Counted from the first letter of the stretch, positions 10,421 through 32,000 are shown. The stretch: DNA of 32,000 nt from Promethearchaeum syntrophicum (GCF_008000775.2 NZ_CP042905.2:2940001-2972000); one strand, 5' to 3'. Numbers and translations are program-made. The notes: a model not told the origin generated them from the sequence alone.

Positions 10421-13400
10421 ATGATGAAAATAATAATTATGATACTAAAATTAAATTTTCAACAAATGAATCTACCACTCCAAATTTCTAATCTTAGTCC
10501 GTATGATTACGTGAGCTATGGTATGACCATATTATTTTCTATAATAGGGATGCTGATTTTCATCAGAATGATGAGATATATCAGAGCAGAATTAAAGACC
10601 GCCCCTAAATATACACTTTTCCAAAAAATGAAGAATTTTCTGAGCGCTGTGACTTTTAGTTTAATGGTTTCCCTAGCCATAGTTTTTGTTTTAGCCCTAA
10701 TTTCATCATCTTTGGCCATAAATGCTTCATTAGCGATCAACAGAGGCGTTGGTTCAGATTTAGCATGGTCAGCAGGTATAATTCAAGCATTTAAATTTCC
10801 AACATTTATTCCGATAACTGCTACAATTATTGCAGGATTTTCGCTTTTCTATCCTCTTTACGAATATCTTATTTTGGCGGCTCCTGGCCAGGACGGAAAT
10901 ATGGAAATCCAACAGTTTCTGGAGAAAAAAATAATTGATCGCACATCACCACCTATAAGCTATCTTGTTTCAATTTTATTATATCTTTTCATTGTAGTTC
11001 TTGCGCCAACAGTTACATCATTTATTGCATTGAACTATTGGAACGTACCATCATATCTTGATGCCCCATGGGTAATTGGTCTTATCTTTTTTGTATGGAT
11101 TTTATTAGGACCAATGTTTTATCTATCATATTATTCCAAGATAGGGGCAGCCCATTCATTTTTTAGGGGTCGACGGGTAAACAGAAAGAAAGATAAAAAG
11201 ACGGGGTTCTGGTATTGGATTGCAATCCTTACTATTTTTAACACTGTATGGGCATTTATCCAATTTATTCCAATTTTATGGGGAGATTTTCCTGATCCTA
11301 CATCTCCTTTACAAAATTTCGAAGAGACTCGAGGAGATTTTATGCATACCTTAATTACCTTTTTATACAATAGAGAATTAATTTCAATAGAAACAGTCGA
11401 AAGTCTCTTCACTTTTCTTGCAATAGTTCCAATAGAATTTCTTCTTTTTATAATTACAACTTCCTTCTTTGGTTTGCTTGGATTTTATGCTAAATTTATC
11501 AGTAAAGAACCTTTGAATTCGCCAAAAATGGTATTATTCGCAGCTTATATTATCTGCGGAATAGCTTTCTCAATATTTGTTGATCAGATGGTAAAATATC
11601 CATATACCTTTCCGGATGCATTCTTAAATCAAATTGGATTAAATTTACATTTATCACCAGCACCGGGAGTATCTGAAGCAACTCTAGTTCGTGATCAAGA
11701 AATTTTTGTACGCATTTTTTCAACGGCAATTTTAATCGTAAAAACTTTGGACATAGTATTCTTATTCAATTTTCTTTTCAGAAGGAAAGAAATTAAAAAT
11801 CAGGCTGATGAATGGGTTTTAAACAAAGCAATTTTAGAAAATGATTTTGAAATCATTAAGAAATACTCGAGTCAAAAAAATTCTGAAACCAGATTAATGG
11901 TGGCTCAATCTGTTATTAACTATATACAACTAAAAGACGTACTTTCTAAAGAATCCTCAATAAGCATCGCAGATATCATGGAAGTTCTTATTAATGATGA
12001 AGATCCGGTTATTTCTGGAATAATTTCTAAACATCAAGGTGTGATAATAAGTAAACTACACCAAGATTCCCTTCTCCTTTCTTTGAAAAAGTTGTTAAAA
12101 TCAGAAGAGAAAATAAAAAATAAAAATGCAATCAATGTTCTTGAGAAAATATCAAGGGAAAATATGATCCATACTCGAATTTTACTAAAGGAAATTGTAT
12201 CATCCAACCTTTCTCAAGGAGGAGCCGAGAGTTTATTTGATTTTATTGCCGAAATTGATCAAAGAAATCATGGTTTGGCGTCTAATTTAATTGAACATCT
12301 ACTGATAAATGAAAACGAAAATTTAGTTTATGGTAGTTTAACAGTTATTGGAAAAAACTTATCAAATTTCCAACCTGAATATTCAAAAATACAACCCGAA
12401 TTATCTCAATTACTTCAACATTCAAATGTTGAAATAATTGCTAAAACGATTGATGTCTTTTCTTCATTAGCAAGCAAAAAACAAGAACATATTCCTGATG
12501 TAATGAAAGAATTTAATATAATGACAGCTATTTCACCAGAGATAATAAGGCAAAGAATTGGAGCTTTGGTTAAATTCGCAATTGTTCAACCTGAATGGTT
12601 AAATTCATTATTTGACTATTTAGAAATTTATTTAAATCATCCAAATCCTCGAATTGTAGAAGATGCTGCTGTTTCTTTAGGAAGCATTTCATCAACAATT
12701 GACTTGAAAGTATTTTTCGATCGAATTTTTCCATTTTTTAGAAAATTGGTTCATTCTAATGATCTAAATGTAAAAAAAGCGATTCTCTCATCCATGGTTG
12801 TAATATCAAAAATAAGAGAAGATATTGCAAAAGATGACAGGTTCCAACATCTTTTTAGTATTTTATTGATAGATCCTCATGTAGAAATTCGACATCAAGT
12901 CTTTAGGTTTATTGGTGAAGGAGATCCACAATTTATTTTAGGTGATATAGCAGCATTACTAACAAGTCCACTCAAAATCCAAGTTCGTATTGATTTAATG
13001 AATATATTAGCTTCTATTGCTGAAAAAATAATCCCTTATATTGATGAACTTCAATTGATTGAAATTCTTCAAAAACAAAATTTCGTAAAGGAAAAAGAAC
13101 TAAATTTTCAAGATATGATAGAATTACAAGCAGATCAATCCAAAATTTTTGGTTTTCATGAAGGAGTTAAATCAGTTTCATTAATCGGGGCAACAATTGC
13201 ACTTCTTTATGAGATTCTTTATTTCTCTCCTAAATATTATGATAATATTAATTCATTTATTAATGAAAATTTAGAAAAAGGACAGGAACTTGCTGCGGCA
13301 AAGAAAATCGAATACAAGTGTAAAGTTGTAATGGATGAATTGAAGAGAATTAAAGATCATGGGTCAAGAATAACTTTAGAAGGATTATTAAAAGATTTAG

Positions 13401-14980
13401 AGAGAGATGTGTTTATTGTTGAACCTCTAACTCAGAAAATTATTGCAGAATTTCTTTATGATGTTTATCCTATAAAAAAAGAATTCCACATAGAATTTTT
13501 CGAGATTTATACAGCTTTATGTAAACAAAGAGAATTAGAAGACAGTGATCTAAAGAGTATTTTATTAATGGGAATGGCACAAATTGTAGCGGAAAATCAT
13601 GAAATATACTTCAAACCAATGAGAATGAAAAATCTAATTGAATTTAAAGCCACGAAAACGAACCCATTTGAAACCTGTTTTAAACCGTTTTTACTTTCTA
13701 ATATGAATTCTACAGAAGAAAATATATATCAAGGAGTTTCAAAAGCGTTATACTTAATTATAGAAGTTAGTGAACAAGATAAACTAATAAGAGGGCTGTT
13801 ATTAGAAACGATTTCAAATTCTAAAAACCCCAATATCAAAATTACAGCGATAAAGGCTTTAATATCACTTCCACTTCAAATAGAAGATGAGATTACAATT
13901 AATGTTCTTTTAAAGCAAGTTAAATCAAAACATCCTTTAGTTCAAGCTGAAGCAATTCGATCTTTAGGTAACATTATTCGGATATTTCCAGTTACTTCAA
14001 CGAGATCAAGGAGTAAAGAATTTAAAAAGCTGAAGAACTTAATATATAAGGTTATTTTCGAACCCTACAAACCTGAAGCACCTTTAGAAATTAAAGAAGC
14101 GATCGTTGAACATTTACCCACCATAACTTTATTGCATCCAGATCTAAAAGTGTGCTTAAGTGCAATTAAAGCGATGGGATTGGATCCTGTTCCTTCAATT
14201 ACAACAGCTGCCGTTGAGACATATTTCCAATTAATTGATTATAAAATATCTTGCATATCTAAAGAAAAACCAAAAAACGAATCTCAACGCTTTGAATCAA
14301 TTTATGGAAATAATATCCCCGAATTACGGTTATTCCGACATTTTGCGAATAGTTCATTAACAGAAGTAAATAATATGTTGATTCGGAAAATTATAGCGCT
14401 ATATGAAAAAGAATCTGATAAAATTAACATAGATCCATTACTACCTAGCTTGACAAAATTAGCTACATCAACTTCTAAAGACATAAGAGCTCAAACTATT
14501 GCAATATTCAGTGAAATTTATTTGAAAGACCAAAAAACATTTGAATTTCTACTAGAAATGTTTTTGAAACTTGCAAACAACCGAAATCCTGAAGTAAGAC
14601 GTGATATTTGTGAGAATTTATTTAAAATAATATTCGCAAATCCAATAGGTTTCCAAGAAAATATTTCAATATTCCAAACATTACTAAAACTTTCAATGGA
14701 TTCAGATTTTGAAATTCAATCAATTATTGCAATGAATTTAAAAGAATGTATTGAAAAATGTCCGAAAAGAGCCAATGATTTACTTCAGATCATTTATGTT
14801 TTCTTACGAAGATCGGATGCGCCAATTAAACAGAAAGCAATTATGGCAATTAGGGATATCTGGGTAAAAAATCCAATTTTACAGAAAGATATCTTAAATA
14901 GCGTTCAAAGATATTATAAGAAATCGGGAGATGCGCTACTTCTGACATTAATAGGGAATTTATCTGAAGTAAAAAAATAA
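10421..14980 (+). CDS. giant polytopic-membrane protein with about 1050-aa cytoplasmic HEAT/ARM-repeat solenoid
   Basis: An uninterrupted 4.56-kb ORF in AT-rich DNA. Residues 1 to about 455 contain about 9 hydrophobic helices. The rest is helical repeats with classic HEAT signatures (HPNPRIVEDAAVSLGSI, SNDLNVKKAILSSMVVI, DPHVEIRHQVFRFIGE, NPNIKITAIKALISL, HPLVQAEAIRSLGNI, SKDIRAQTIAIFSEI, NPEVRRDICENLFKI, DAPIKQKAIMAIRDI). The start among four nearby Met codons is uncertain. Confidence 0.75.
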   Translation: MMKIIIMILKLNFQQMNLPLQISNLSPYDYVSYGMTILFSIIGMLIFIRMMRYIRAELKTAPKYTLFQKMKNFLSAVTFSLMVSLAIVFVLALISSSLAINASLAINRGVGSDLAWSAGIIQAFKFPTFIPITATIIAGFSLFYPLYEYLILAAPGQDGNMEIQQFLEKKIIDRTSPPISYLVSILLYLFIVVLAPTVTSFIALNYWNVPSYLDAPWVIGLIFFVWILLGPMFYLSYYSKIGAAHSFFRGRRVNRKKDKKTGFWYWIAILTIFNTVWAFIQFIPILWGDFPDPTSPLQNFEETRGDFMHTLITFLYNRELISIETVESLFTFLAIVPIEFLLFIITTSFFGLLGFYAKFISKEPLNSPKMVLFAAYIICGIAFSIFVDQMVKYPYTFPDAFLNQIGLNLHLSPAPGVSEATLVRDQEIFVRIFSTAILIVKTLDIVFLFNFLFRRKEIKNQADEWVLNKAILENDFEIIKKYSSQKNSETRLMVAQSVINYIQLKDVLSKESSISIADIMEVLINDEDPVISGIISKHQGVIISKLHQDSLLLSLKKLLKSEEKIKNKNAINVLEKISRENMIHTRILLKEIVSSNLSQGGAESLFDFIAEIDQRNHGLASNLIEHLLINENENLVYGSLTVIGKNLSNFQPEYSKIQPELSQLLQHSNVEIIAKTIDVFSSLASKKQEHIPDVMKEFNIMTAISPEIIRQRIGALVKFAIVQPEWLNSLFDYLEIYLNHPNPRIVEDAAVSLGSISSTIDLKVFFDRIFPFFRKLVHSNDLNVKKAILSSMVVISKIREDIAKDDRFQHLFSILLIDPHVEIRHQVFRFIGEGDPQFILGDIAALLTSPLKIQVRIDLMNILASIAEKIIPYIDELQLIEILQKQNFVKEKELNFQDMIELQADQSKIFGFHEGVKSVSLIGATIALLYEILYFSPKYYDNINSFINENLEKGQELAAAKKIEYKCKVVMDELKRIKDHGSRITLEGLLKDLERDVFIVEPLTQKIIAEFLYDVYPIKKEFHIEFFEIYTALCKQRELEDSDLKSILLMGMAQIVAENHEIYFKPMRMKNLIEFKATKTNPFETCFKPFLLSNMNSTEENIYQGVSKALYLIIEVSEQDKLIRGLLLETISNSKNPNIKITAIKALISLPLQIEDEITINVLLKQVKSKHPLVQAEAIRSLGNIIRIFPVTSTRSRSKEFKKLKNLIYKVIFEPYKPEAPLEIKEAIVEHLPTITLLHPDLKVCLSAIKAMGLDPVPSITTAAVETYFQLIDYKISCISKEKPKNESQRFESIYGNNIPELRLFRHFANSSLTEVNNMLIRKIIALYEKESDKINIDPLLPSLTKLATSTSKDIRAQTIAIFSEIYLKDQKTFEFLLEMFLKLANNRNPEVRRDICENLFKIIFANPIGFQENISIFQTLLKLSMDSDFEIQSIIAMNLKECIEKCPKRANDLLQIIYVFLRRSDAPIKQKAIMAIRDIWVKNPILQKDILNSVQRYYKKSGDALLLTLIGNLSEVKK

Positions 14981-20401: not shown

Positions 20402-20842
20402 ATGTTAAAAGAAGGCGATAATGCACCAAAAAATATTGAATTAAATGACCAAGAAGGGAATTTAATTAAATTGGATGATTTTAAGGGAGAAAAACTAGTA
20501 GTATATTTCTATCCCAAAGATAATACACCTGGTTGTACACTTGAAGCAAAGAATTTTAAAGATTCAATCGAAGATTATAACAAAAAAGGAATTAAAATTA
20601 TTGGTATAAGCGCAGATTCTGTAAAATCTCATAAAAATTTTGTTTCAAAATACGAAATTCCGTTTACACTGCTCTCGGACTCTGAAAAAAAAGCAGCAAA
20701 AAGTTTTGGTGCTTTAGAGCAAGGAAAAGTTAAAAGAAGAACATGGTTAATTAATGAAAATTGGCAGATTGAAAAAGCTTTTGAAAAAGTATCCCCAACA
20801 AAGCACATTCAAGAATTAGCTGAATTTTATCAACTGAAATAA
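20402..20842 (+). CDS. bcp: thioredoxin-dependent peroxiredoxin, BCP type
   Basis: Has VVYFYPKDNTPGCTLEAKNF (the peroxidatic Cys motif FYPkDxTPGCT.E). The 146-aa size and the C-terminal RRTWLI pattern are typical of Bcp/PrxQ. Confidence 0.9.
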   Translation: MLKEGDNAPKNIELNDQEGNLIKLDDFKGEKLVVYFYPKDNTPGCTLEAKNFKDSIEDYNKKGIKIIGISADSVKSHKNFVSKYEIPFTLLSDSEKKAAKSFGALEQGKVKRRTWLINENWQIEKAFEKVSPTKHIQELAEFYQLK

Positions 20843-20972
20843 TAATATCTCCCATTATTTGTTATTTTTCTCAATTTTTTCAAGTGAACTAAATGTATAA
20901 AAACTCCGATAAAAAAATCTAAAAAACCTTTAATCTGTTCACATAAAAATTCAACATTTCCTTAATTTATAT

Positions 20973-21896
20973 ATGGCTGTAGAGTTAGAAGATGTCCCGC
21001 CGCAGAAAATCCAAAAATCCGTAGGATTAACCAAAACTCCTAGATATAAAAATTTTGTCGCAATATCAAATAGAAAAATTCCCAACTATTGTTCAAAACA
21101 TGATTTACATATAGATCATATTACAGGTGATACTATATGTACTAAATGTGGTCTTGTTATCGATGAGCATCTAGTTATTTCTCAAAATTATGTAAATTGG
21201 AAATCGAATATAGATACATTTTCTACATATCAACAAAAGGATAGATATTTCTCACAGGATTTGATACGCGCTTTAAGAAGAGGACATAATATTTCATGGA
21301 ACGAGAGAAGAGAAAAAATCGGAATAAATGAGATTAATCGAATTACTGCTTTGCATAATATAGGGAAATCAATAAAAGAAAGGGCAATCAAACTTTTCCA
21401 AAAAATAATCAAGGAGGATGTTTTTCAGAATCACTATATTAAGCTTATCGCAGTAATTAGTTTTTACCAAATTATTAAAGAGGAAAAAAATCCATTAAGT
21501 TTGACCGAAATCATTGAAAATTCCGATTTTTCTAACCGTCTTGCAAATAAATATTATTACACTGTTAGGAAATGTCTAAATATTAAAGCGATATCTATAA
21601 AATCAAATGATCCCAAAATTTACATTCCAAACATATGCTCATCCTTAAGAGTAAATCAAGATATTAATGAATTAGCACGCAAAATAATTGATAATTTCCA
21701 AAAATCTGTGAATTTATCAGGTTTTAAATTAAAAGGTATTGCAGCGGCAGGCGTGTATATTGCTTGTAGATTAAATAGTATCCCAAAATCTCAAAAAGAA
21801 GTTTCTAAAGCCGCAAATATCACCGATTGCACATTACGTTCTCGAGTCAAAGATATGGAAATTTATTTGAGAAGAAATAGAAGTATCTGGGAATAG
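20973..21896 (+). CDS. tfb: transcription initiation factor B (TFIIB-type) paralog, divergent
   Basis: The N-terminal ribbon is CSKH...GDTICTKCGLVIDE (CxxH...CxxC rather than CxxC...CxxC). Two cyclin-fold repeats follow. The second is canonical (GFKLKGIAAAGVYIACRLNSIPKSQKEVSKAANITDCTLRSRVKDM). The first lacks the usual GRS motif. Confidence 0.8.
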   Translation: MAVELEDVPPQKIQKSVGLTKTPRYKNFVAISNRKIPNYCSKHDLHIDHITGDTICTKCGLVIDEHLVISQNYVNWKSNIDTFSTYQQKDRYFSQDLIRALRRGHNISWNERREKIGINEINRITALHNIGKSIKERAIKLFQKIIKEDVFQNHYIKLIAVISFYQIIKEEKNPLSLTEIIENSDFSNRLANKYYYTVRKCLNIKAISIKSNDPKIYIPNICSSLRVNQDINELARKIIDNFQKSVNLSGFKLKGIAAAGVYIACRLNSIPKSQKEVSKAANITDCTLRSRVKDMEIYLRRNRSIWE

Positions 21897-21958
21897 TATT
21901 AGAAAAAAAAAGAAATTTAAATTACAAAAAGAGAATTTATCAGTAAGGGATAAAATTC

Positions 21959-24900
21959 ATGGAAAAGAAAGAAAAAAGCGATAAAGCAAATTTCGGTAAA
22001 ATTTTTTTTACTAGATTTATTGATGATAAATGTGATCGCCAATTATTCCTAAAGTTATGTCAAAATAATCCAAATTGGATGGATCCCCTTCGTGATATTG
22101 CTAAATTAAAAAGACCTGTAAGGACAAATGAATATATTTTAAATCTCGGTAAGGCGTATGAACAAAAAGTATATAGTTTTCTAAATAAATCTCTGAATAC
22201 AAAATATATAAAAGATAAATCTACGAAAAAAATTCACCAAACTAAATTAAAATTTCATGACTTAGATGATTGTTACTCTAAAATTCATGAAGGAAAATCT
22301 CCTTATTTGATACTCTTAGAAAATGAATTTCAAACTCCAATCTCATTTAAAAAATCAATTTTTCCTACTAAAAATTCAGAGAATCCAATAGATGTTAAAT
22401 TTTCAGATCAAAGGCCAGATATAATAATTATTAGAAAAAATCTTGATACAATGAATAAAGGTGATATATATGAACTTTTACCCAACGGAGAAAGGCGAAA
22501 ATTACCTAACAATGAAATTAATAATCGTTTATCCATAAATGTAATAGATATTAAAAATACTGCCGAGCAAGATATAGGAAAAAAACATTTTATTGAAATC
22601 ATGCTCTATTTAAGATCTTTTTCTCATTTCATATACGATCATAAATTAGAAAAGAATTTTTTTATTTCGATAAGCAAGAACGGTATATTCCCTAAATATA
22701 CCGAAGACATTTTAAAGAATATAAAAAATTTAGAAAGGTTTGAACAATTTGTTATAGAAATTCCATGGAATGAATCAGATCGGATTTTTACTAGTACTGT
22801 AAATAAATTGCATGATCTTCATGAAATAAGCCCTTGTGCAGTGGAAGATATATCAGTAAACATTCATCCTAATTGCGGTTTTTGTCCCTTTTTAGAAGAT
22901 TGTAAAAAAACTCTGGGGATGAATGATAGGGATAGTCCTAAAAATTGGTCATTACAATTAATACCTTTTAATTCTAGATCAATTTCCCAACAATTGGAAT
23001 CTTATGGTTTTAAAACAATAGGTGATGTAGAAAGAGGGTTAAAAAAAATAAAGGTAGGAAATACTCCAGCTCCATTGTACCCAGAACTTCCACTACTAGA
23101 AATGAAAGTTAAATCATTGATTAATAATGAAATAACTACTCCAATACCTGGAAAAGTACACTCTTACTGCATTCCAAAATTTACCCCTATTTCACTTTCG
23201 TTTGCGATTGAAACAGATCCATCAAGTGATAGGGTATTTGCTGCTGGAATTTATTTAAAGATGATTGTCGCAAAGAAAGCGAAAAATTATCATATCTTTA
23301 AAAAATGGTGGAAAATTTGGAAAAAGGCTTTAGATACTTCAAAATCTCCAGATTTTATTAAAACTCAGTTAGACACCAATTGTTTTTCAATAGACCAACA
23401 AATTCCCTTAGAAATCGTTGATAAATTCTTAAAACTTTTAAAGGATCTAAAAAATTTCAAGATTTTCATCCCTGGTATGCTCGTAAATGGAAAAGAGGTA
23501 ATTCAAACACGGGTCTTGGGTTTTTATGCCATTATCAACGAAAGTTTGGACCCCGATAAAGAAGATGAATTAGCTATAAATTTGGTAAATAATCTCTTCC
23601 CTATGATGGAACTTTGCAATATTGTAGAAAGATATGTTCTCACAAGGGAAATTAAATATTTCAATAAGAAAGACGGTTCAACCAAGGAATATATTTACGA
23701 ATATAAAGCAGATATGGGAATTTTTTATTGGTCAAAAAGTCAAATCGAGCATTTACAAGATATGTTAGAAAGGAATTTAGAAAAAATTATAAGTAGAACA
23801 ACCATCCGGAATAAATTTTCCTCATTAATATCTTGGTTTACACCTTCAGATTCCGAGGTAACACATCCTTATCAACATAAGAAAATTTTTAATTTACGAG
23901 CATTCATAGAAACCGTAATAGGCTTTCCAGGTATTATTAATTATACATGGCACGAAATTGTTAAACATCCTTCAAATGGAGGGCTTAATAGTAATAAACT
24001 GTTTTGGATTGAACATTTCAATTATATGGATCCCACACCATGGTATGATTATCTTGAAGCAAAAGGCGATCATTCTAAACAAAAAAAATTGAAGAATGAA
24101 ATAATCAAACAAGTAATCCATAAAACTCGAGCTTTGAACACACTACGTGAAAATTTTCAATATCGCACACGGCATGCAATTTCAAAACATGCTAGACCTA
24201 TAAAATCAACTGCAATTAAACAAAAAACTTTAGGAGAAAATTATCATAGCCTTGCTCATGTTTGGTATTTATTTTCAGAATTAAATGGAACTATGCAAGA
24301 ATTAGAAGCAAATAATATTCGAACGATATATCCAGAATACAGTATAGGAAAATTGAACGCAGCTAAGATATCTGATTTATATCAAGTTGATAATCCTTTA
24401 GTAAAATATAACATTTTTCAATTTCAAATTATAAATTTATCCAGTAATATGAAAATTAATGAAGGAGATTATGTATTACTAATTCCAGATGAATTAAGAG
24501 ACCTTAGAAAATGGGAACTTGATAGAAAATGGAGAGTAAAAATACATAAAATGATTTGGAATTCAAAAAGTAAAGGTTATTTGATGGAAGTCCATTCTAC
24601 AGAAAATCTTCTAATTTTATATGATAAAACAATTGAAAATAAACCAGAAATTCCTAATTGGTATTTATATCCAACATCAATGGATGCCTGGACCAATAAA
24701 TTATATGGAATACGTGTTGGAGGTCTTCTTGAAAGAAAAAGATTTGGAATAAGTTGGTTAGGTGCAAGATTAGCCTATTTATGGAATATTCGTTCAAAAA
24801 ATAATCTTTTTTGGCCAAAAAATTGGGAATTTTCTTCTAATGAAATATATATGTATTTACCTAAGTTGCTTGAAATAATTAAAGAAATCCCTGGAAAAAA

Positions 24901-26920
24901 ACTATTGACTAATATATGCCCTACTCCAGATGAATCGCAAATAGAAGCAATCAAAAACGCTCTTGATAACGTGATTTATGCAATTATAGGACCTCCAGGA
25001 ACGGGAAAATCACAAACAATTGTGGCTTTAATTGATGAATTTATCTTCCGTTCAGAACAAAATAAAAAACCTATCCGTATATTAGTAACCTCTTTTTCAT
25101 ACACAGCACTTCGAGTTATAATAGATAAAATTAGAAAGAGTAAAAATGTTGAGGGGAATAAATCAAAAGCCGCAGAAATGCAACTTATTTTTCTAAGATC
25201 TGAAAGCCAACTCCCTATTGCTGAAACAGCTGAATGTACATTCGTTAATGATCTTGTTAGATTACCCAATGGAAGCTGGAGATGGAATGGTGAATCAAAA
25301 AAAATTACCAAATCAAAACCTTTGGAAGATCAATTAATGGAGAATTTCGTAATTTTTGGAAATGCCCATCAACTTTTTAGATTGACTGAAAGAACTTCTC
25401 CCGGATTTGTATTTGATTTAATTTTAGTTGATGAAGCAAGTCAATTACCAACAGATTATTTTTTATCAAGCCTACAATATATAAAAAACCAAACTTTCCA
25501 TATTCAACCAAATATTCCGGAGATGGTATCATTAACACCAAATTCCTTAGTAGAATCTAGGGATCATATTGAGAAAATGAATCTATTAAATCCAATAGAT
25601 ATAAGAAATGTTACTAAAGTCGTAATAGTTGGAGATTATAATCAGCTACCTCCCGTCCAACCAATATCACCTCCAAAGAATTTAGAAAAGGTTTTAGATA
25701 GCCTTTTTGCCTATTATGTAAAGTATCATGATATAAATAGATCCCAATTAAAAACAAATTATCGTTCACATCAAGATATCGTTGATTTCACCAAGACCTT
25801 AGGAATCTATGAGGGTTTACACCCAACTTCTTCTTTAGCGAATAAAACTTTGCAAGGAGATGTAAATCGAATCGATCAATCATGGGTCCAAGAAATATTA
25901 GACCCAACCAAAGTGGTTTGTTCATTAATACATAACAAAAGGTTTGAAATTGCGGTTAGTTCCATTGAAGCAGAATTCGCATCAGAAATAGTAATAGGTT
26001 ACTATGAAATGTGTAACATTAAATCGAGTAAGGATGAAAGGGTATTTTGGAAGGAAAAAATTGGTGTTGTCGCCCCTCATAATGCTCAAGGTCGCTTAAT
26101 CATACATGATATCTTCGAAAAAATGACTAAACCATCCAAAAGTCTAACTCAATTAAATAATAGCGAGTTAATGTCACATTTAAAAAGTACTGTGTATTCT
26201 GTTGAGAAATTTCAAGGGTCTGATCGCGAATTAATAATTGCATCAGTAGGATTATCAGATATTGATCAAATTAGTGCAGAAGAAGAGTTTATTTATGATT
26301 TGAATAGATTTAACGTTCTAACATCCCGTGCAAAGAAAAAAATAATCTATATTTGCAGCGATTCCTTTTTAGATTTCATCCCAAATTCTCGTGATGTCAT
26401 GAAACACGCATCACATAGTTATAATTATGCTTATAAATTTTGTAATCGAGAAAAAGTTATTTTTATCAAAAACGAAAAAAATAATTTGGATTATATTTAT
26501 TTTCGATGGAAGGAAAACAGCAAAAAATTGGATAAATCATTAGAAACATTTAAAATTGATTCACAAATCAATGGAGATTATTTCGAAATAAGTTATTCAC
26601 CCAAAATGGAATTTGATTCTTTAATCCAAGACATCCCAAAAGATATTTATAAAAATAAATCAGATAAAAACCTTGATTCTGATCGCGAGATATGGCGATT
26701 TAAATTTACTGATATTCCGAAGATCCGCAAATTTATTGTAATTCCAGACCCAATTTATCAAGAATATGCTAATAAATTTGAAGAACTAATCGATGAATCC
26801 AAAGAAGAAAGTAATCGAATTAATGAACAGGTAAAATTTAAAAAAAAGATTAAGAAAAGTGGTAGAAAAAAAATTAATGTAGATTTTGGTGATAATGATG
26901 AAGATGATTCACTCTTCTAA
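21959..26920 (+). CDS. giant multidomain enzyme: Cas4/Dna2-type Fe-S PD-(D/E)XK nuclease + RNase H-like module + Upf1/Dna2-type SF1B helicase
   Basis: Nuclease: C25 plus C306-x2-C309-x5-C315 (22874..22903), with PD154 (22418) and D197-x-K199 (22547..22555). Middle module: an HhH-like segment, then FAIETDP (E418 at 23210) and FYWSKSQIEHL. Helicase motifs: GPPGTGKS (24989..25012), LVDEASQL (25427..), VGDYNQLPPV, NYRSHQDIVDF, KFQGSDRELIIAS, FNVLTSRAKKKI. Confidence 0.8.
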   Translation: MEKKEKSDKANFGKIFFTRFIDDKCDRQLFLKLCQNNPNWMDPLRDIAKLKRPVRTNEYILNLGKAYEQKVYSFLNKSLNTKYIKDKSTKKIHQTKLKFHDLDDCYSKIHEGKSPYLILLENEFQTPISFKKSIFPTKNSENPIDVKFSDQRPDIIIIRKNLDTMNKGDIYELLPNGERRKLPNNEINNRLSINVIDIKNTAEQDIGKKHFIEIMLYLRSFSHFIYDHKLEKNFFISISKNGIFPKYTEDILKNIKNLERFEQFVIEIPWNESDRIFTSTVNKLHDLHEISPCAVEDISVNIHPNCGFCPFLEDCKKTLGMNDRDSPKNWSLQLIPFNSRSISQQLESYGFKTIGDVERGLKKIKVGNTPAPLYPELPLLEMKVKSLINNEITTPIPGKVHSYCIPKFTPISLSFAIETDPSSDRVFAAGIYLKMIVAKKAKNYHIFKKWWKIWKKALDTSKSPDFIKTQLDTNCFSIDQQIPLEIVDKFLKLLKDLKNFKIFIPGMLVNGKEVIQTRVLGFYAIINESLDPDKEDELAINLVNNLFPMMELCNIVERYVLTREIKYFNKKDGSTKEYIYEYKADMGIFYWSKSQIEHLQDMLERNLEKIISRTTIRNKFSSLISWFTPSDSEVTHPYQHKKIFNLRAFIETVIGFPGIINYTWHEIVKHPSNGGLNSNKLFWIEHFNYMDPTPWYDYLEAKGDHSKQKKLKNEIIKQVIHKTRALNTLRENFQYRTRHAISKHARPIKSTAIKQKTLGENYHSLAHVWYLFSELNGTMQELEANNIRTIYPEYSIGKLNAAKISDLYQVDNPLVKYNIFQFQIINLSSNMKINEGDYVLLIPDELRDLRKWELDRKWRVKIHKMIWNSKSKGYLMEVHSTENLLILYDKTIENKPEIPNWYLYPTSMDAWTNKLYGIRVGGLLERKRFGISWLGARLAYLWNIRSKNNLFWPKNWEFSSNEIYMYLPKLLEIIKEIPGKKLLTNICPTPDESQIEAIKNALDNVIYAIIGPPGTGKSQTIVALIDEFIFRSEQNKKPIRILVTSFSYTALRVIIDKIRKSKNVEGNKSKAAEMQLIFLRSESQLPIAETAECTFVNDLVRLPNGSWRWNGESKKITKSKPLEDQLMENFVIFGNAHQLFRLTERTSPGFVFDLILVDEASQLPTDYFLSSLQYIKNQTFHIQPNIPEMVSLTPNSLVESRDHIEKMNLLNPIDIRNVTKVVIVGDYNQLPPVQPISPPKNLEKVLDSLFAYYVKYHDINRSQLKTNYRSHQDIVDFTKTLGIYEGLHPTSSLANKTLQGDVNRIDQSWVQEILDPTKVVCSLIHNKRFEIAVSSIEAEFASEIVIGYYEMCNIKSSKDERVFWKEKIGVVAPHNAQGRLIIHDIFEKMTKPSKSLTQLNNSELMSHLKSTVYSVEKFQGSDRELIIASVGLSDIDQISAEEEFIYDLNRFNVLTSRAKKKIIYICSDSFLDFIPNSRDVMKHASHSYNYAYKFCNREKVIFIKNEKNNLDYIYFRWKENSKKLDKSLETFKIDSQINGDYFEISYSPKMEFDSLIQDIPKDIYKNKSDKNLDSDREIWRFKFTDIPKIRKFIVIPDPIYQEYANKFEELIDESKEESNRINEQVKFKKKIKKSGRKKINVDFGDNDEDDSLF

Positions 26921-26936
26921 TCAAATTAAGCTAGTA

Positions 26937-26943
26937 TTTTTTT
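26937..26943 (+). terminator. oligo-T terminator candidate after the nuclease-helicase gene
   Basis: A T7 run lies 17 nt after the stop codon at 26918..26920, in the 29-bp gap before the convergent gene. Confidence 0.35.
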
Positions 26944-26949
26944 GGAACT

Positions 26950-28110
26950 TTATAACCTGACAGGTCCTCTTCCACTCCGAGGATCACCATCTTTCGCAAT
27001 AATCATTGGTGCTTTTCCTGCTTTTACAACTTCACGTGCAACTTCTTGATCAATGGTAGCTGGAACTACAATGTTTACAATGCTAACTTCCGGATCCCGT
27101 AAAAACTCTTCTAATGAAGTATATTGTCGAGGTCGATCCGATTCAGGGATTTTCTTTAAATTTACTTTCTTCTCTGCATTTTTCAATGCTTTTGGATCAA
27201 TATCACAAATTGCTACTATATCCATTACTCTTTTTTCCTTAGGTTGCTTATAAGTTCCTCTCTCAATACTTTTTTTTAACATATTGATCCCACGGTCTCC
27301 CATCCCCACAATTCCAATATGTAATTCATTCATTTTCCTTTTTCCAACTGATTCCCACGATCTTCCTTTTCTAAACACAGATCTATCTTGTTGTTGAGGT
27401 ATTTGCATCCCCATCATCCGCATTACTTGAATAGCGTGATCATGAGAGACCCCTAATGGCCATTTATCTACTAACCTATGTAAATTGGCAATAACTTGTC
27501 CAAAATTAGGAGGATTTCGATTTTTTTCTACGCATTCTTTAGTTTCAAACATCAAAGTTTGCATAATAAAAATGAAATCCTTTTCATTTACTATTGGGAA
27601 AAAGACACGCCCTCCAAGTGCTTCAATTATTGAAGGTCTTAATGATTCATCGCGGATGATACAAATCGGAGGGAGTCTATTTTGTGCAACTGTAGTTATA
27701 TCCGCCAATAACGATTTTAGCTTTTCATTATTTTTAGATTCAAGGAGGAAACAACAAATCATTCCTGGTTGTTTCATTAAAATAGTAAAGTGTGGGGCAA
27801 CCAATTTTTTCTCATTATGTAGATTATTATCAGATTCCGTTTCATGAGGAATATATGGTCTGGAGATTGGTATAAACTTGCTTTTTCGCCATTCATCTTC
27901 ACTAATTATGTTTGCAAAGGGAGACTCTGGAGCATTAATATGTATTTTATTCCCATTTAGGTTAATTAAGGCAGGAATTATTTTATCAGCTATTAGATCC
28001 TTAAAATGCTTCTCAATATGTCGAAGTGTAAAAGTAGGTTTCGAATATCTAGATATTGCAGAAGATTCCGGAATTAATATAGATAATGTTATTCTTTTCA
28101 TTATAATCAC
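26950..28110 (-). CDS. hypothetical two-domain protein: unknown alpha/beta N-terminal region + degenerate Gfo/Idh/MocA-like Rossmann domain at the C-terminus
   Basis: The C-terminal roughly 120 aa read LHIGIVGMGDRGINMLKK...MDIVAICDIDPKALKNAEKK...YTSLEEFLRDPEVSIVNIVVPATIDQEVAREVVKAGKAPMII. This follows the Gfo/Idh/MocA NAD-binding pattern but lacks the EKP motif and any C-terminal catalytic domain. I recognise no motif in the N-terminal 260 aa. It is the longest ORF at this locus, and the opposite-strand ORFs are rejected. Confidence 0.4.
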   Translation of the reverse strand: MIIMKRITLSILIPESSAISRYSKPTFTLRHIEKHFKDLIADKIIPALINLNGNKIHINAPESPFANIISEDEWRKSKFIPISRPYIPHETESDNNLHNEKKLVAPHFTILMKQPGMICCFLLESKNNEKLKSLLADITTVAQNRLPPICIIRDESLRPSIIEALGGRVFFPIVNEKDFIFIMQTLMFETKECVEKNRNPPNFGQVIANLHRLVDKWPLGVSHDHAIQVMRMMGMQIPQQQDRSVFRKGRSWESVGKRKMNELHIGIVGMGDRGINMLKKSIERGTYKQPKEKRVMDIVAICDIDPKALKNAEKKVNLKKIPESDRPRQYTSLEEFLRDPEVSIVNIVVPATIDQEVAREVVKAGKAPMIIAKDGDPRSGRGPVRL

Positions 28111-28138
28111 ATTTAAATTGTCTTTTTAAACACATTAT

Positions 28139-29563
28139 TTGTTTAGATTCAAACCTATAAAAAGATATATTATACTTGATTATTTTTTTATAAATTGGGA
28201 GATTCATGAAAAATTGGTTAATTTTACTTTATTAGGAATAACTTTGATTTTATTTGTAGGTATTCTAATTATATTTAGCCGAGAACACATGGACTATGTT
28301 GCCTTTTCATTACTTTTTGCCTTTGTCGCTTGTGTTTTAACCAGTTTTATGATACCAATTGAGCAAGTCGGAGAACATGTACCCTGGGTGGACTCTTCTC
28401 AAATTACTGGGTCAACATGGATGATAATTTTTATTAATATGATTGAGTTTGAGCCATTATTGTTCATAATTGGAATGCAAATTATCTGTACAATTGCTGA
28501 AGAGTATAGATTATTTCAATGGGTCGCAGTAAAATCCCTTCATATCACTAAAGGAAATCATCGAAGATTTTTCTATATGATTTGCACCATTGCTACTTTA
28601 ACAGCTGCGATAATTGCAGATGTAACCGTAGCTGTTATCTTTGTTCCATTAGTAATACGAGCTTGTCGTATTTTGAAAATAAATCCTGCCCCATATCTTT
28701 ATGGAATTACGATTACCATTAATATTGGTTCAATTTTAACTCCATTTTCATCCTCGAAAAATATCTTGATTTCTTCTGAATTTGGCTTAGGGTTTACTTG
28801 GTTTATGCAAAATATGGGTCTTTTTATTATTTTTGCTCTTATTTCCACATTAATTCTATTAGATTTCTTTGTGTTGCGAAAGTATGATCCCCCCGAGGAA
28901 GAACGAAAGCAAATCTTCCTGGATATAATGAATCCAAAATTGCTTATCAGTAATCGTAAACGTTTTATTTTTAATGGGGTTTATGTGGCGCTAATAATTT
29001 TAGGATTTATGATATTCCATGAGCATTCCCCCCTGATTGCCTTTTTTGGTGCGATTATCATGAGTATACTTAATGGAATTCCGGTTACTGACATCCTGAA
29101 AAAGATTGATTTGAAAGTTATTTTCTTCTTTATCGCTCTTTTTCTTCTCATTGGATCTATGGAATTAAACGGCACCTTTAGCCTTATTTCAACTGGACTC
29201 TCTATTTTCAATTTAAGTAATATTTATGTTGTATCTCTTGGAGTTCTTCTAATATCAAGCCTTTTCTCAGGATTTTTAGCCAGTAATCCCACAGCGGTGT
29301 TATTGATAATAATATTAAGAAATATTTATCCAGGAGAGATCCCAAATATTATTTTAATTGCGTTTCTATTTGGTATCAATCTTGGAGGAAACTTACTACC
29401 TCAAGGTGCAACTTGTGATTTAATGACTCTAAATTTGGCCAAGAAAAATAATGTTCAAGGGTTTACCTACAAATCCTTACTAAAAACGGGTGGGGCATTT
29501 GCATTAATACATATTGGTATGTGTATATTGTATCTCACTTTATATAGCTTATTTACTGGTTAA
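28139..29563 (+). CDS. ArsB/NhaD-superfamily (YbiR/CitMHS-like) ion/anion permease
   Basis: About 11-12 TM helices. The segment TAAIIADVTVAVIFVPLVIRACRILKINPAPYLYGITITINIGSILTPFSSSKNILI fits the ArsB/NhaD permease core pattern (sN.a...l..Pi...p.p.l......an.Gg..tp.G...N). The start is uncertain. TTG 28139 leaves only 28 bp to the divergent gene. In-frame alternatives are TTG 28214 and ATG 28289. Confidence 0.6.
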   Translation: MFRFKPIKRYIILDYFFINWEIHEKLVNFTLLGITLILFVGILIIFSREHMDYVAFSLLFAFVACVLTSFMIPIEQVGEHVPWVDSSQITGSTWMIIFINMIEFEPLLFIIGMQIICTIAEEYRLFQWVAVKSLHITKGNHRRFFYMICTIATLTAAIIADVTVAVIFVPLVIRACRILKINPAPYLYGITITINIGSILTPFSSSKNILISSEFGLGFTWFMQNMGLFIIFALISTLILLDFFVLRKYDPPEEERKQIFLDIMNPKLLISNRKRFIFNGVYVALIILGFMIFHEHSPLIAFFGAIIMSILNGIPVTDILKKIDLKVIFFFIALFLLIGSMELNGTFSLISTGLSIFNLSNIYVVSLGVLLISSLFSGFLASNPTAVLLIIILRNIYPGEIPNIILIAFLFGINLGGNLLPQGATCDLMTLNLAKKNNVQGFTYKSLLKTGGAFALIHIGMCILYLTLYSLFTG

Positions 29564-29696
29564 TATCCATTTTTTGTATTAATGCTAACATGTATCACCT
29601 TTTTGATTATCTATTAAACTAGTAACCTAGGCATTTTAATGATTAGAAACTCAAGTAATAATTAAAAAACCCACACTAATCAATTTCAAATGGTTT

Positions 29697-31118
29697 ATGA
29701 AATTTGAAATGAAGGTGATAATGATGCAACCCATAAAATTTATCCACATGGCAGATACACATTTAGGAAATCAACAATATAATCTACCAGAACGCAAAAG
29801 AGACTTCAACAAAGCATTTAATTGGGTTTTAAATAAAAGTATTACCGAAGAAGTAGATTTTATCCTTTTAGCAGGTGATGTATTTAACTCAAATAATTCA
29901 GAACCTGAAACTATAGCCGCAATTTATCAAATGATATCCGAATTCAAAAATAATTCCATGCAAAACTTAAAAAGAGAAATACCTATAATCGCAATTGAAG
30001 GAAATCATGATAAAAGCAATATTTCAACTAAAAGGTCATGGTTACAATTTCTTGCGGAATTAGAACTTATCATTCTATTATCTCCTAAAACCAATAATAA
30101 AGAAGAATATACTATTTTTAAATTCGTCCCTTATTCAGAAAACAAGAAAAATCCTGGGATGATTCGTATCAAAGACACTTGCATATACGGGATTCCATCT
30201 TATGGGGCTATGACAAAAACATATTTTCCCGATATTTATAATGCACTCCCAGATAGTTCTGATACATTTAATATCTTGATGATGCATTTTGGGATAAATG
30301 GTCAAGTTATAAACAAATTAGGATTTGAAATGAGTGAAGATTTAAAATTACTGCATAAAAAAGTAAATTATCTTGCGTTAGGTCATTTCCATAAAAAATA
30401 TGCACTTCCCAAGAATAAAGAGTGGGTGTTTAACCCCGGAAGTTTAGAAGTTACTGATGCCAGAGAAATCTGGGAAAATTACCCTCGAGGCATTTTCTTA
30501 GTGGAAGTGCATGATAAAGAAAATCCTAATATTAGGCATATTCCTTGGGTTAAAGGTAAAAGTGAAAGTCCTGATGAAATTCCCAATCGATTCTTTGCAG
30601 ATATTACAATTGATATAGGGAAAAATGATTCAAGTTCATTTAAGGAGGCACTATCATATATATTAGAAAGCTTAAAAATTATTCTGGAAAAAAAAGGAAC
30701 AGCTCATTTAAAAAAAAATGATTTAGAATTACCTATTGTTTTGCTTACCTTAAATGGGACAATTTCCTATTCAAGATTGGAAGTAAACATCAATAAACTG
30801 AAAGAAAGAATTAAAGAAAAATACGATGTTTTGGATGTACGTGTTTTTAGTGGATCTGTGAAGTCAGAAATTGACGGAATCGTGGTAGATATAAGTTCTG
30901 AGAAATCACTTGAAGAAATTGAAAAAGATGTATTTTTACAACTCATTGAACAGCATCCAGATTATGAACCACACAAAAACGATATAATTCAATTAATGTT
31001 AGATTTAAAAAGTTCGATTCTTGATCCAAAAAAAAATTTTGACCAATTAAGAAATCAAATCAAATTATGGTGGAGATCACATATCTCACTCCCACAAGGG
31101 GAATTAAATAAGAATTAG
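29697..31118 (+). CDS. mre11: DNA double-strand-break repair nuclease Mre11
   Basis: The phosphoesterase motifs appear in Mre11 order: IHMADTHLG, LAGDVFN, EGNHD, MMHFG, LGHFHK. The gene lies directly upstream of rad50. The likely true start is ATG 29721 (MMQPIKFIHMADTHLG), preceded by GGTGA at 29713..29717. Confidence 0.9.
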   Translation: MKFEMKVIMMQPIKFIHMADTHLGNQQYNLPERKRDFNKAFNWVLNKSITEEVDFILLAGDVFNSNNSEPETIAAIYQMISEFKNNSMQNLKREIPIIAIEGNHDKSNISTKRSWLQFLAELELIILLSPKTNNKEEYTIFKFVPYSENKKNPGMIRIKDTCIYGIPSYGAMTKTYFPDIYNALPDSSDTFNILMMHFGINGQVINKLGFEMSEDLKLLHKKVNYLALGHFHKKYALPKNKEWVFNPGSLEVTDAREIWENYPRGIFLVEVHDKENPNIRHIPWVKGKSESPDEIPNRFFADITIDIGKNDSSSFKEALSYILESLKIILEKKGTAHLKKNDLELPIVLLTLNGTISYSRLEVNINKLKERIKEKYDVLDVRVFSGSVKSEIDGIVVDISSEKSLEEIEKDVFLQLIEQHPDYEPHKNDIIQLMLDLKSSILDPKKNFDQLRNQIKLWWRSHISLPQGELNKN

Positions 31119-31129
31119 GAGCAAATTTA

Positions 31130-32000
31130 ATGATAATAACTAAAGTGCAATTAATAAACATCACCACCCATAAGAATAATTTCATAAAATTTGAAGAAGG
31201 AACTAATCTTTTAATGGGACCCAATGGCACAGGAAAATCCACCGTTCTTACAATGATTGGGTATGCACTTTTTGATATGAAACTTGGAAATAATCAAAAA
31301 TCATACGTCCGTGTCCCATCATCTAAGAATAATTTTGGTACAGTAAAAATTTGGATAAGTGGCAAAGATAAACAAGAATATTGTATTGAACGCACAATTG
31401 GGAAACCTAACAATAAAATAATTGTATCTCATTCTGATACGGGTGCAATTCTAACTAAAATTTATAATAAAGCTAATTTACGGATTTGGATTCAAGATCA
31501 GATGGGATTAAGTAAAAATTTTTCACTTTCAAGTATATTCGAACACGCCATAGGTGTGAATCAAGGAACGTTTACTGCCCCATTTTTAATGAACCCTAGT
31601 GATAGGTCCAGTATTTTTGCCCCTTTACTAAATGTACATATTTATAAAAACATTTATGATAAATACAGAGAGATTAATAATTCATTCAAAGATGAAATTC
31701 AAAATTTAGAAAAAGAGATTAGCTTTATTGAAGGAGAATTAAAGGGAAAAGATCAAATCACTCAACAACAAATAGATATTAATGAAAAACTTCGAGAATT
31801 AAGGGTTTCATCTATAAGTTCGATTACAAATTTTAACCGAATAAAGAAAAAATACGATGAATTGGTACTAATAAAGGAAAAATTAGAAAAAGTAAGAAAT
31901 GATGTCGAAAGATTGGAGTATAAGAAGAAAAATTTAGAAGATATTCTTGATAAAAATGAAGTTGAAATCAATGAAGCTAAATCAGCAAAAAATATTTGCG
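31130..32000 (+). CDS. rad50: DNA double-strand-break repair ATPase Rad50, N-terminal part (runs off the right edge)
   Basis: Not in the track because it is truncated. ATG 31130 follows AGGAG at 31116..31120. Translation gives MIITKVQLINITTHKNNFIKFEEGTNLLMGPNGTGKSTVL (Walker A at 31217..31240). This is followed by the GVNQGTF Q-loop region and the start of a Lys/Glu-rich coiled coil. Confidence 0.9.
   Translation, partial: MIITKVQLINITTHKNNFIKFEEGTNLLMGPNGTGKSTVLTMIGYALFDMKLGNNQKSYVRVPSSKNNFGTVKIWISGKDKQEYCIERTIGKPNNKIIVSHSDTGAILTKIYNKANLRIWIQDQMGLSKNFSLSSIFEHAIGVNQGTFTAPFLMNPSDRSSIFAPLLNVHIYKNIYDKYREINNSFKDEIQNLEKEISFIEGELKGKDQITQQQIDINEKLRELRVSSISSITNFNRIKKKYDELVLIKEKLEKVRNDVERLEYKKKNLEDILDKNEVEINEAKSAKNIC

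Follow-up and report, generated by a model that had tools for sequence, protein, structure and literature searches.

We analysed a 32,000-nucleotide stretch of the Promethearchaeum syntrophicum genome (GCF_008000775.2, NZ_CP042905.2:2940001-2972000), hereafter the window, with a focus on an AT-rich region (G+C about 30%) that contains mre11, rad50 and a large open reading frame (ORF) of 1653 amino acids (aa). The 1653-aa protein is likely to be a nuclease-helicase built on the plan of eukaryotic Dna2 and part of a Lokiarchaeial Mre11-Rad50 module for processing DNA double-strand breaks. As such it would probably be a Dna2-type resection enzyme in which helicase and nuclease are fused, from the archaeal lineage nearest to eukaryotes. 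The genes concerned are:

21959-26920, + strand: nuclease-helicase ORF, 1653 aa, with a Pfam AAA_11/AAA_12 core at about aa 990-1490
29697-31118, + strand: Mre11 nuclease; Pfam Metallophos, E=2e-16; best NCBIfam model Mre11_Pyroc, E=2e-34, below its cut-off
31130-32000, + strand: Rad50, N-terminal 290 aa, cut by the window end; NCBIfam Rad50 PRK03918, E=3e-21, and Pfam AAA_23

An earlier reading of this DNA, made from the sequence alone, had placed mre11-rad50 about 2.8 kb downstream of the helicase on the same strand, and this holds: mre11 starts 2776 bp past the helicase stop codon and rad50 11 bp past the mre11 stop codon. The true start of Mre11 is probably at M9/M10 (29721-29726), directly before QPIKFIHMADTHLG. 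Taken by itself, the 2.8-kb separation in the window is no evidence of linkage; that evidence comes from related genomes.

Linkage to mre11-rad50 in related genomes

A scan of one genome per GTDB species gave 80 loci, in which ORFs were called and searched with the window proteins as seeds. The neighbour-joining tree built for the family serves as no more than a rough guide. At 29 loci from Lokiarchaeia the helicase gene lies 0-117 bp upstream of mre11, followed by rad50 on the same strand. These loci include the complete genomes of Candidatus (Ca.) Lokiarchaeum ossiferum (L045) and Ca. Harpocratesius repetitus (L021). In one locus, L009, the genes are divergent, and another, L068, has no mre11-rad50 downstream of the helicase. 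On the tree, all members with mre11-rad50 within about 100 bp downstream fell into one Lokiarchaeial clade, to which the window protein also belongs. Outside this clade, the distant Heimdall locus L057 has mre11-rad50 adjoining the helicase, with mre11 491 bp downstream.

As a control, all genes within ±10 kb were clustered for 29 loci of the window's clade. The helicase was found in 29/29, Rad50 in 27/29 and Mre11 in 27/29 plus one locus cut by the contig end, while the next most frequent family reached 5/29. A trio that is the sole conserved feature amid shuffled neighbourhoods is the classical signature of a functional operon, and that the nuclease-helicase works with Mre11-Rad50 is well supported. 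The helicase-mre11-rad50 operon would be the ancestral arrangement in the Lokiarchaeial clade, split in the window's genus because a permease gene, joined by an orphan ORF in this strain, was inserted.

Domain architecture of the nuclease-helicase

The protein was divided into the following regions:

aa 1-330, 21959-22948, + strand: nuclease domain of the PD-(D/E)xK type, predicted to bind a 4Fe-4S cluster of the Cas4/AddB/Dna2 type (conserved residues, AlphaFold2, Foldseek BFVD)
aa ~335-390, 22961-23128, + strand: helix-hairpin-helix-like motif (LIPFNSRSISQQLESYGFKTIGDV) with three short helices (conserved block, AlphaFold2 model)
aa ~400-704, 23156-24070, + strand: conserved alpha/beta and helical region without a Dna2 counterpart (invariant columns, model)
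aa ~705-905, 24071-24673, + strand: putative stalk of two long helices and a modelled six-strand beta-barrel (AlphaFold2 secondary structure)
aa ~985-1490, 24911-26428, + strand: superfamily 1B (SF1B) helicase core of the Upf1/DNA2/NAM7-like type (Pfam AAA_11, E=1e-12; AAA_12, E=7e-21)
aa ~1500-1653, 26456-26920, + strand: C-terminal extension, in "long-form" members only (tail comparison)

Residue conservation in the nuclease domain was read from 33 aligned N-termini of archaeal and Myxococcota proteins. K14, C25, R27, E121, P153-D154, G177, D197, K199, Y217, C306, C309, D314 and C315 are invariant in 33/33, and E213 is conserved in at least 90%. The catalytic motifs of PD-(D/E)xK nucleases are present as E121, P153-D154 and D197-x-K199, on model strands 116-124, 155-159 and 191-198. 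The four-cysteine pattern of Cas4, AddB and Dna2 is also present (C25 and C306-x2-C309-x5-C315), the cysteines being Fe-S ligands predicted by sequence. On helix 208-227, E213-x3-Y217 has a Glu where the RecB-family Q-x3-Y motif has Gln, an equivalence drawn from spacing only.

The AlphaFold2 model of aa 1-335 had a mean confidence (predicted local distance difference test, pLDDT) of 89.5 and a predicted template-modelling score (pTM) of 0.88. C306, C309 and C315 lie in its C-terminal alpha-alpha extension, so placed that the modelled domain has the "stapled" arrangement described for Dna2 and AddB (PMC4716839). When the model was searched against BFVD with Foldseek, 7/8 named matches at E<0.06 were PD-(D/E)XK-type or related nucleases, including DUF2800 and COG5377 proteins. 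Four nucleases stood inside the top ten (E 1.7e-3 to 4e-3, probability 0.91-0.99), with RecB-like and Cas4 entries next at E 0.1-0.3. The "nuclease" label, originally a guess from sequence, now has the backing of the motifs, of the AlphaFold2 model and of one Foldseek search out of two. Calling the protein a nuclease-helicase is justified, and Dna2 is its closest analogue in architecture.

In the helicase core, Walker A (GPPGTGKS, 1011-1018), Walker B (DEAS, 1158-1161) and the GDxxQLPP, YRS and QGSDR motifs are intact, and GPPGTGKS, DEAS, GDxxQLPP and QGSDR were found invariant in the family alignment. The best match of the helicase in the PDB is mouse DNA2, both with the single sequence (E=3e-7) and with the family profile (E=3e-18). 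IGHMBP2, UPF1, Aquarius and Sen1 rank after it with the profile; the lead of DNA2 is marginal, at 67.6 bits against 61 for IGHMBP2, and RecD reached only E=0.007.

Two helices (705-736 and 764-790) and a barrel (802-905) precede the helicase core in a model of the first 980 aa (pLDDT 80). As modelled, they resemble the stalk and barrel of Upf1-like helicases and Dna2, an arrangement that is part of the Dna2 domain description (PMC4716839). A Foldseek search of the 980-aa model against the PDB gave no match at E<1e-3. It returned a weak match to a Sen1 chain (8ram_O; 157 columns, probability 0.98, E=0.05), for which the aligned model region was not reported, and further weak matches to beta-barrel proteins.

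The part of the protein between nuclease and stalk is absent from Dna2. The block at aa ~335-390 is conserved in alignments A1/A2 and forms helices 340-348, 354-363 and 374-389 in the model; its assignment as a putative helix-hairpin-helix comes from the sequence pattern only. In aa ~400-704, E418, D420, E535, E557, W591, R605, Y662-T-W-H665 and H686 are fully or nearly invariant, and pLDDT is mostly 80-93. The sole structural lead here is a weak Foldseek match to the exonuclease region of E. coli Pol II (E ~0.09). The region may be a second catalytic or nuclease module, or a DNA-binding module.

The C-terminal extension of the window protein consists of a Lys-rich stretch and an acidic tip ending in DNDEDDSLF-COOH. 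An acidic run followed by x-L-[FYL] ends nearly all the tails compared (window, L001-L003, L005, L020, L021, L028, L058, L075 and L076). Such an ending recalls the C-terminal docking peptide of bacterial SSB; a docking-peptide role for the tail is speculative.

Comparison with known end-processing enzymes

Eukaryotic Dna2, as seen in mouse DNA2 (PDB 5EAX/5EAN; PMC4716839), is likewise one chain whose N-terminal part is a PD-(D/E)xK nuclease of some 310-330 aa. The order of domains is the same, from Fe-S nuclease through stalk and barrel (these parts predicted here) to an Upf1-like SF1B helicase. Both are also tied to Mre11-Rad50 in resection, by genetic linkage here and biochemically in eukaryotes. 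The window protein differs by some 370 additional conserved residues (aa ~335-704) that separate nuclease from stalk, and long-form members of its family add the C-terminal tail. Its sequence gave no match to the Pfam Dna2 domain; alignments to DNA2 in the PDB cover the helicase part only, and no sequence similarity was found in the nuclease domain. Neither the N-terminal OB (oligonucleotide-binding) fold of Dna2 nor its alpha1 RPA-binding helix was identified in the window protein. Helicases of the Upf1-like SF1B group travel 5'-to-3', and in Dna2 the 5' strand is threaded through the tunnel of the Fe-S nuclease (PMC4716839). Eukaryotic Dna2 has been reported in 2025 to have a phylogenetic relationship with "some Asgard homologs" (PMC12680538).

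AddAB, AdnAB and RecBCD also combine SF1 motors with RecB-family PD-(D/E)xK nucleases, and the C...C-x2-C-x5-C iron-sulfur "staple" is common to AddB and the window protein (PMC4716839). These systems are, however, heteromeric SF1A/SF1B complexes with C-terminal nuclease domains, whereas in the window protein one chain combines an N-terminal nuclease with an Upf1-like rather than UvrD/RecD-like motor. The folds closest to aa 1-335 in BFVD belong to Cas4 and viral RecB-like exonucleases (PD-(D/E)XK with Fe-S, DUF2800), which have in common with the window protein the cysteine pattern, D...D-x-K and, judged by spacing, (Q/E)-x3-Y. They are, in contrast, stand-alone proteins of about 200-400 aa, and no sequence-profile match connects them to it.

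HerA-NurA occupies the same genomic niche beside mre11-rad50 and has the same predicted task, in which an ATP-driven motor and a nuclease produce 3' tails. In some Lokiarchaeia, HerA-NurA and the nuclease-helicase are encoded in one cluster. Neither sequence nor fold relates the two: HerA is an FtsK/HerA-type ATPase that forms hexamers (PF01935), with NurA as a separate nuclease subunit (PF09376), whereas the window protein is a monomer-type SF1B helicase fused to a PD-(D/E)xK nuclease.

Relation to herA-nurA

In thermophilic archaea herA-nurA is linked to mre11-rad50 (PMC2288612). Among the Promethearchaeota loci, the following arrangements were found:

Canonical cluster DUF8166-herA-mre11-rad50-nurA, without the helicase: L090, L091, L092 and L093 (the last cut within rad50)
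Both modules, as helicase-DUF8166-herA-mre11-rad50: L087
Both modules, as helicase-DUF8166-herA-mre11-rad50-nurA: L076
Both modules, as DUF8166-herA-mre11-rad50-helicase-nurA with gaps of 14-17 bp: L088 and L089
Helicase only, as helicase-mre11-rad50: 29 loci

L002, the closest outgroup of the window (helicase 69% identical), carries the order peroxiredoxin-TFB-helicase-LRR (leucine-rich repeat)-permease-DUF8166-herA-mre11-rad50. In the window's genus (window, L001, L003, L005 and L084) the permease stands directly before mre11. The sequence-only reading was correct in placing it, and not herA, there.

No significant match to HerA (PF01935) or NurA (PF09376) was found among the window genes between 20.4 and 32 kb; real HerA and NurA were recognised in L002, L076 and L087-L093. 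That herA or nurA might lie just past the truncated rad50 had been raised as a caveat, which is partly resolved. L001, a contig with a 98%-identical helicase that was used to see beyond the window end, has a full-length Rad50 orthologue of 900 aa. After rad50, L001 and L003 have small unannotated ORFs, with neither nurA nor herA there. These ORFs come in pairs of about 160-170 aa (L001, 11964-12452 and 12487-12984; L003, 12645-13148 and 13496-13981) and occupy the place that nurA has in other clusters. Both L003 ORFs match the first L001 ORF, which makes them paralogues; the L001 pair had no Pfam match.

When the L002 HerA was searched against a protein database, two matches were 100% and 90% identical, and no other exceeded 65%. 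The 90% match, L083, is from the L002 lineage; its Mre11 shares 82% identity with that of L002 and 71% with that of the window. Databases hold at least five assemblies of the window's genus. Because HerA is more conserved than the helicase in these lineages, a retained orthologue should have appeared, and herA has thus probably been lost in the window's genus. The absence of herA and nurA is observed for the cluster and suggested for the genus.

Genomes with herA-nurA only, with both modules and with the helicase only look like stages of a replacement series. The sequence-only reading had proposed that the nuclease-helicase may work with HerA-NurA or replace it in resection. That it works with Mre11-Rad50 is well supported by the adjacency in 29 loci; replacement of HerA-NurA by the nuclease-helicase fits the gene-order pattern and is unproven.

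A DUF8166 (PF26500) protein of about 200 aa is encoded directly before herA in every Promethearchaeota herA-mre11-rad50 cluster seen, often with a 4-bp overlap (L002:19453-20055, L076:1118-1717, L087:5125-5721, L088:9393-10004; also L090-L093). This protein is probably a fifth member of the herA-nurA module in Asgard archaea.

Gene order in the window and the TFB paralogue

The remaining features around the nuclease-helicase are:

20402-20842, + strand: peroxiredoxin of the Bcp/PrxQ type; Pfam AhpC-TSA, E=2e-35
20973-21896, + strand: TFB-like ORF, 307 aa; Pfam TFIIB repeat, E=1e-19, and Zn_Ribbon_TF, E=2.8e-6
21910-21923, + strand: TATA-like A/T-rich element AAGAAATTTAAATT in the TFB-helicase gap (upstream-region alignment)
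26937-26943, no strand: run of seven T (T7) between the convergent helicase and ORF386 genes (read from sequence)
26950-28110, - strand: ORF386, a 386-aa orphan convergent with the helicase; Pfam GFO_IDH_MocA, E=1.4e-7, aa 264-367
28139-29563, + strand: CitMHS/ArsB-family permease; Pfam CitMHS, E=1e-51

Of the orphan gene and permease that the sequence-only reading had placed between helicase and mre11, both are present, with the orphan on the minus strand. The last ~105 aa of ORF386 correspond to the N-terminal Rossmann part of GFO_IDH_MocA oxidoreductases, and its first 260 aa match nothing. It is present in the window and the near-identical L001 only; the spot is empty in L003 and L084 and holds an LRR protein in L002. 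ORF386 is a variable insertion outside the module and looks like a gene fragment fused to novel sequence. The permease lies between helicase and mre11 in L001, L002, L003, L005 and L084 as in the window, and at the helicase-mre11 junction in 0/29 loci with direct helicase-mre11 adjacency. The T7 run resembles an archaeal oligo-T terminator and may act as one, and a run of six T (T6) was read after the permease. Because of the T7 after the helicase and the T6 after the permease, the helicase, the permease and mre11-rad50 are probably separate transcription units in the window's genome. Upstream of mre11 (29564-29696), two TTTTAATG boxes flanking CTAG-N4-CTAGG are conserved in the genus as candidate regulatory sites.

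The TFB gene ends 62 bp upstream of the helicase on the same strand, and the longest T run in the gap (21897-21958) is 3, in agreement with the sequence-only reading. The peroxiredoxin gene heads a clade-specific peroxiredoxin-TFB-helicase string that occurs in the same order in L002, L003, L004, L084, L085 and L086. Wherever the downstream flank is present (L002-L004, L084-L086), the gene after TFB is the helicase or, in the short contigs L085 and L086, an ORF fragment at the same 64-bp spacing. Upstream of TFB, 20843-20972 contains long genus-conserved blocks, e.g. TAAAAACTCCGA.AAAAAAATCTAAAAAAC, which are candidate regulatory sites.

The TFB protein has an N-terminal zinc ribbon (C40-x2-H43...C56-x2-C59), whose ligands are invariant in nine orthologues, and two cyclin-fold repeats (aa ~111-296). 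It aligns to the core of Pyrococcus TFB (1AIS) across both repeats (E=7e-16). The NCBIfam TFB model gives it 112 bits against a cut-off of 384, which marks it as a divergent member. Only 20 homologues came up in database searches; their identity is 61% or higher, and every one comes from the window's genus or the L002 lineage. By its sequence and distribution this TFB is a young, fast-evolving lineage-specific paralogue and not the housekeeping factor; a second, canonical TFB is expected elsewhere in the genome.

Upstream regions of the helicase were aligned for the window, L002, L003, L004 and L084. The TATA-like AAGAAATTTAAATT block, about 40 bp upstream of the helicase ATG, and a downstream GAGAATT are unchanged in 5/5 loci, and TAAGGGATAAAATT is the same in four and slightly altered in L002, although the flanking proteins share only 61-69% identity with their L002 counterparts. 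This conservation suggests that the TATA-like element is a candidate promoter of the helicase's own.

In Sulfolobales, the damage-induced TFB3 is needed for the damage regulon; it is truncated and lacks the cyclin core. The window TFB is likewise an extra, divergent gene of the TFB family, but unlike TFB3 it retains the zinc ribbon and both cyclin repeats. A TFB3-like role was rejected, as neither the full-length architecture nor the distribution fits.

Family size and distribution

A word-indexed protein search returned 73 helicase homologues, the named ones being from Promethearchaeota, Lokiarchaeota and Heimdallarchaeota. When aa 1-980 were searched against 1.84 billion representatives, only 165 proteins were found; the full-length ones among them have about 1,400-1,760 aa and the same long architecture, and the rest are fragments. 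The family is narrow.

Full-length members (28-36% identical) also occur in metagenome-assembled genomes (MAGs) labelled Myxococcota, Bradymonadales, Polyangiales or delta-/proteobacteria (L027, L030, L033, L035, L037, L038, L041-L043, L050, L052-L056, L060, L063, L064, L070 and L071). These keep the same invariant nuclease and cysteine residues, and in no locus of this set do they adjoin mre11/rad50-like genes. Their occurrence suggests gene transfer between Asgard archaea and Myxococcota. Some Lokiarchaeia (L029, L036, L049 and L069) encode a second helicase paralogue of about 1600 aa that is unlinked to mre11, and both copies were found within one MAG in YT6_002 and co8_354.

Mechanism and alternative explanations

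If the 1653-aa protein acts in end resection as proposed, Mre11-Rad50 would recognise the DNA end and open or process it. The SF1B motor would then load on the 5'-terminated strand, travel 5'-to-3' and feed this strand to the Fe-S nuclease domain, whose N- and C-terminal extensions would be stapled by the predicted 4Fe-4S cluster. The strand would be cut there as in Dna2, and a 3' tail would remain for RadA loading.

Several observations weigh against this account. The functional readings come from sequence, predicted structure and gene order, with the polarity and substrate of the helicase taken from family membership. The BFVD matches of the nuclease domain are modest (E ~1e-3, TM score 0.3-0.5), and the 335-aa model found nothing significant in the PDB (no E<1e-3); weak, non-significant matches there include Cas4 SSO0001, TnsA, Bse634I and R2 endonuclease domains. 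In Pfam and NCBIfam, aa 1-980 of the window protein and of 32-33 family members gave no usable domain match. The curated Pfam models PDDEXK_1, Cas_Cas4 and Dna2 and the NCBIfam Cas4 model were unmatched by the window protein and 32 members, the nearest approach being PDDEXK_1 with 1/33 N-termini at E=0.019. PADLOC gave no usable domain match for the N-terminal 980 aa, a profile of the N-terminal domain gave a chance match only against PDB sequences, and tblastn of the nuclease domain against phage genomes returned nothing relevant. In the window itself the helicase is 2.8 kb from mre11, probably on a different transcript. Every Myxococcota member, the majority from Heimdall and the second paralogue clade of Lokiarchaeia lie away from mre11/sbcCD, and one function for the whole family is therefore not required. 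Finally, herA-nurA coexists with the helicase in some clusters, which makes the latter no simple substitute; this coexistence suggests overlapping or cooperative roles before replacement.

A different role would be that of a Dna2-like enzyme of replication or RNA-DNA hybrids, acting on Okazaki flaps, stalled forks or R-loops, in which case adjacency to mre11-rad50 would reflect general co-regulation of DNA metabolism. The Upf1-like branch acts on both RNA and DNA, with DNA2, IGHMBP2, UPF1 and Sen1 within about 25 bits of each other; Dna2 has roles in replication as well as repair (PMC4716839), and the paralogue clade and bacterial members are unlinked to mre11. We nevertheless consider this role unlikely, as the adjacency is tight (0-117 bp) and specific, no other gene being conserved nearby, and annotated neighbours of the helicase include no replication genes. 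The helicase is moreover inserted in herA-mre11-rad50-nurA clusters at two positions, which fits membership of a resection module. An anti-virus or anti-plasmid defence system, possibly with an SMC-like ATPase and nuclease partner, appears very unlikely, and it was rejected as the main explanation. PADLOC did match MkoA (E=1e-26), DpdJ (E=3e-17) and PDC-S37, the NCBIfam models ProA, Hhe and PLuB are matched over parts of the core, and the Rad50 N-terminus matches the ATPase models LmuB, PtuA and GajA. All these matches, however, cover generic P-loop or helicase segments and never the full architecture (ProA scores 43 bits against a cut-off of 1500), and for the partners the best matches are the canonical models of archaeal Mre11 and Rad50. 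Immediate neighbours vary (ORF386, LRR protein), and the patchy distribution over Asgard archaea and Myxococcota suggests horizontal transfer, as a defence system would have it. Yet the trio is found in about 30 species of one coherent clade, unlike sporadic defence islands, and sister lineages carry mre11-rad50 in the classical herA-mre11-rad50-nurA cluster.

The sequence-only reading had also seen in the TFB paralogue a possible dedicated initiation factor for this regulon; on that model it would switch on the helicase and mre11-rad50 after DNA damage. There is precedent for alternative TFBs in stress responses. This paralogue is conserved and under constraint, it has the helicase (or the ORF fragment of L085 and L086) next to it wherever the downstream flank is present, and the 62-bp gap contains no terminator-like T run. 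Against this, the paralogue occurs in the window's genus and the L002 lineage only, a shallow clade whose whole neighbourhood is syntenic; in the remaining Lokiarchaeial loci, a search with the window's own TFB as seed detected no TFB up to 10 kb from the helicase. In most species the module evidently does without this TFB. The helicase has its conserved TATA-like element downstream of TFB, no motif common to the helicase and mre11 upstream regions was seen, and nor was any link of TFB to mre11-rad50 or DNA damage. A dedicated TFB regulon is very unlikely on this evidence, and the idea is not supported.

Going beyond the Dna2-plan resection enzyme, the family could be the archaeal orthologue or sister of eukaryotic Dna2. 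The partnership of Mre11-Rad50 with Dna2 would then have arisen in Asgard archaea and displaced HerA-NurA stepwise, with all stages still visible, and the middle ~370 aa may be an RNase H-like second nuclease, giving a dual-nuclease motor. We regard this wider scenario as possible and rather doubtful.

Eukaryotes resect DNA ends with MRN and Dna2 (or Exo1), Dna2 working with a RecQ helicase, whereas model archaea use HerA-NurA. To our knowledge, eukaryotes are without HerA-NurA. An enzyme of Dna2 architecture genetically coupled to Mre11-Rad50 in their closest archaeal relatives offers a concrete, testable route for the switch from HerA-NurA to Dna2, to which the genomes at intermediate stages add. 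It also gives a likely function to a family of about 1500-aa proteins so far labelled only "AAA domain-containing" or "hypothetical". Ca. L. ossiferum is cultured and carries the helicase-mre11-rad50 operon, which makes expression and biochemical work feasible. Non-exhaustive literature searches on Asgard or Lokiarchaeal Mre11, HerA and Dna2-like proteins returned no description of this operon, and no mechanism of DNA-end resection in Asgard archaea was described in the literature searched; a 2026 review of Asgard biology mentions only the conservation of Mre11 and Rad50.

Other observations

The Rad50 proteins encoded beside the helicase in most Lokiarchaeial loci from L003 to L080, and in L001, carry CP[FI]xxxxC[KR]N (C-x6-C) at the coiled-coil apex. 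In L001 (9198-11900) this lies at aa ~455-462, beyond the window end. The canonical zinc hook is C-x-x-C, retained as CPVC or CEYC in L021, L028, L075 and the Heimdall locus L057; a second Rad50-like paralogue keeps it as well. By its sequence, the C-x6-C apex may represent a variant of the hook. In four loci (L013:17459-19975, L044:19092-21629, L059:19110-21698 and L062:19129-21642) another Rad50-like ATPase, about 840 aa long, is encoded about 300 bp after rad50.

Further upstream in the window, 7515-8096 encodes a 3-methyladenine DNA glycosylase (Pfam Adenine_glyco, E=1e-82) and 10421-14980 a 1519-aa protein with HEAT/adaptin-N-like repeats; synteny of the repeat protein is conserved in L002.

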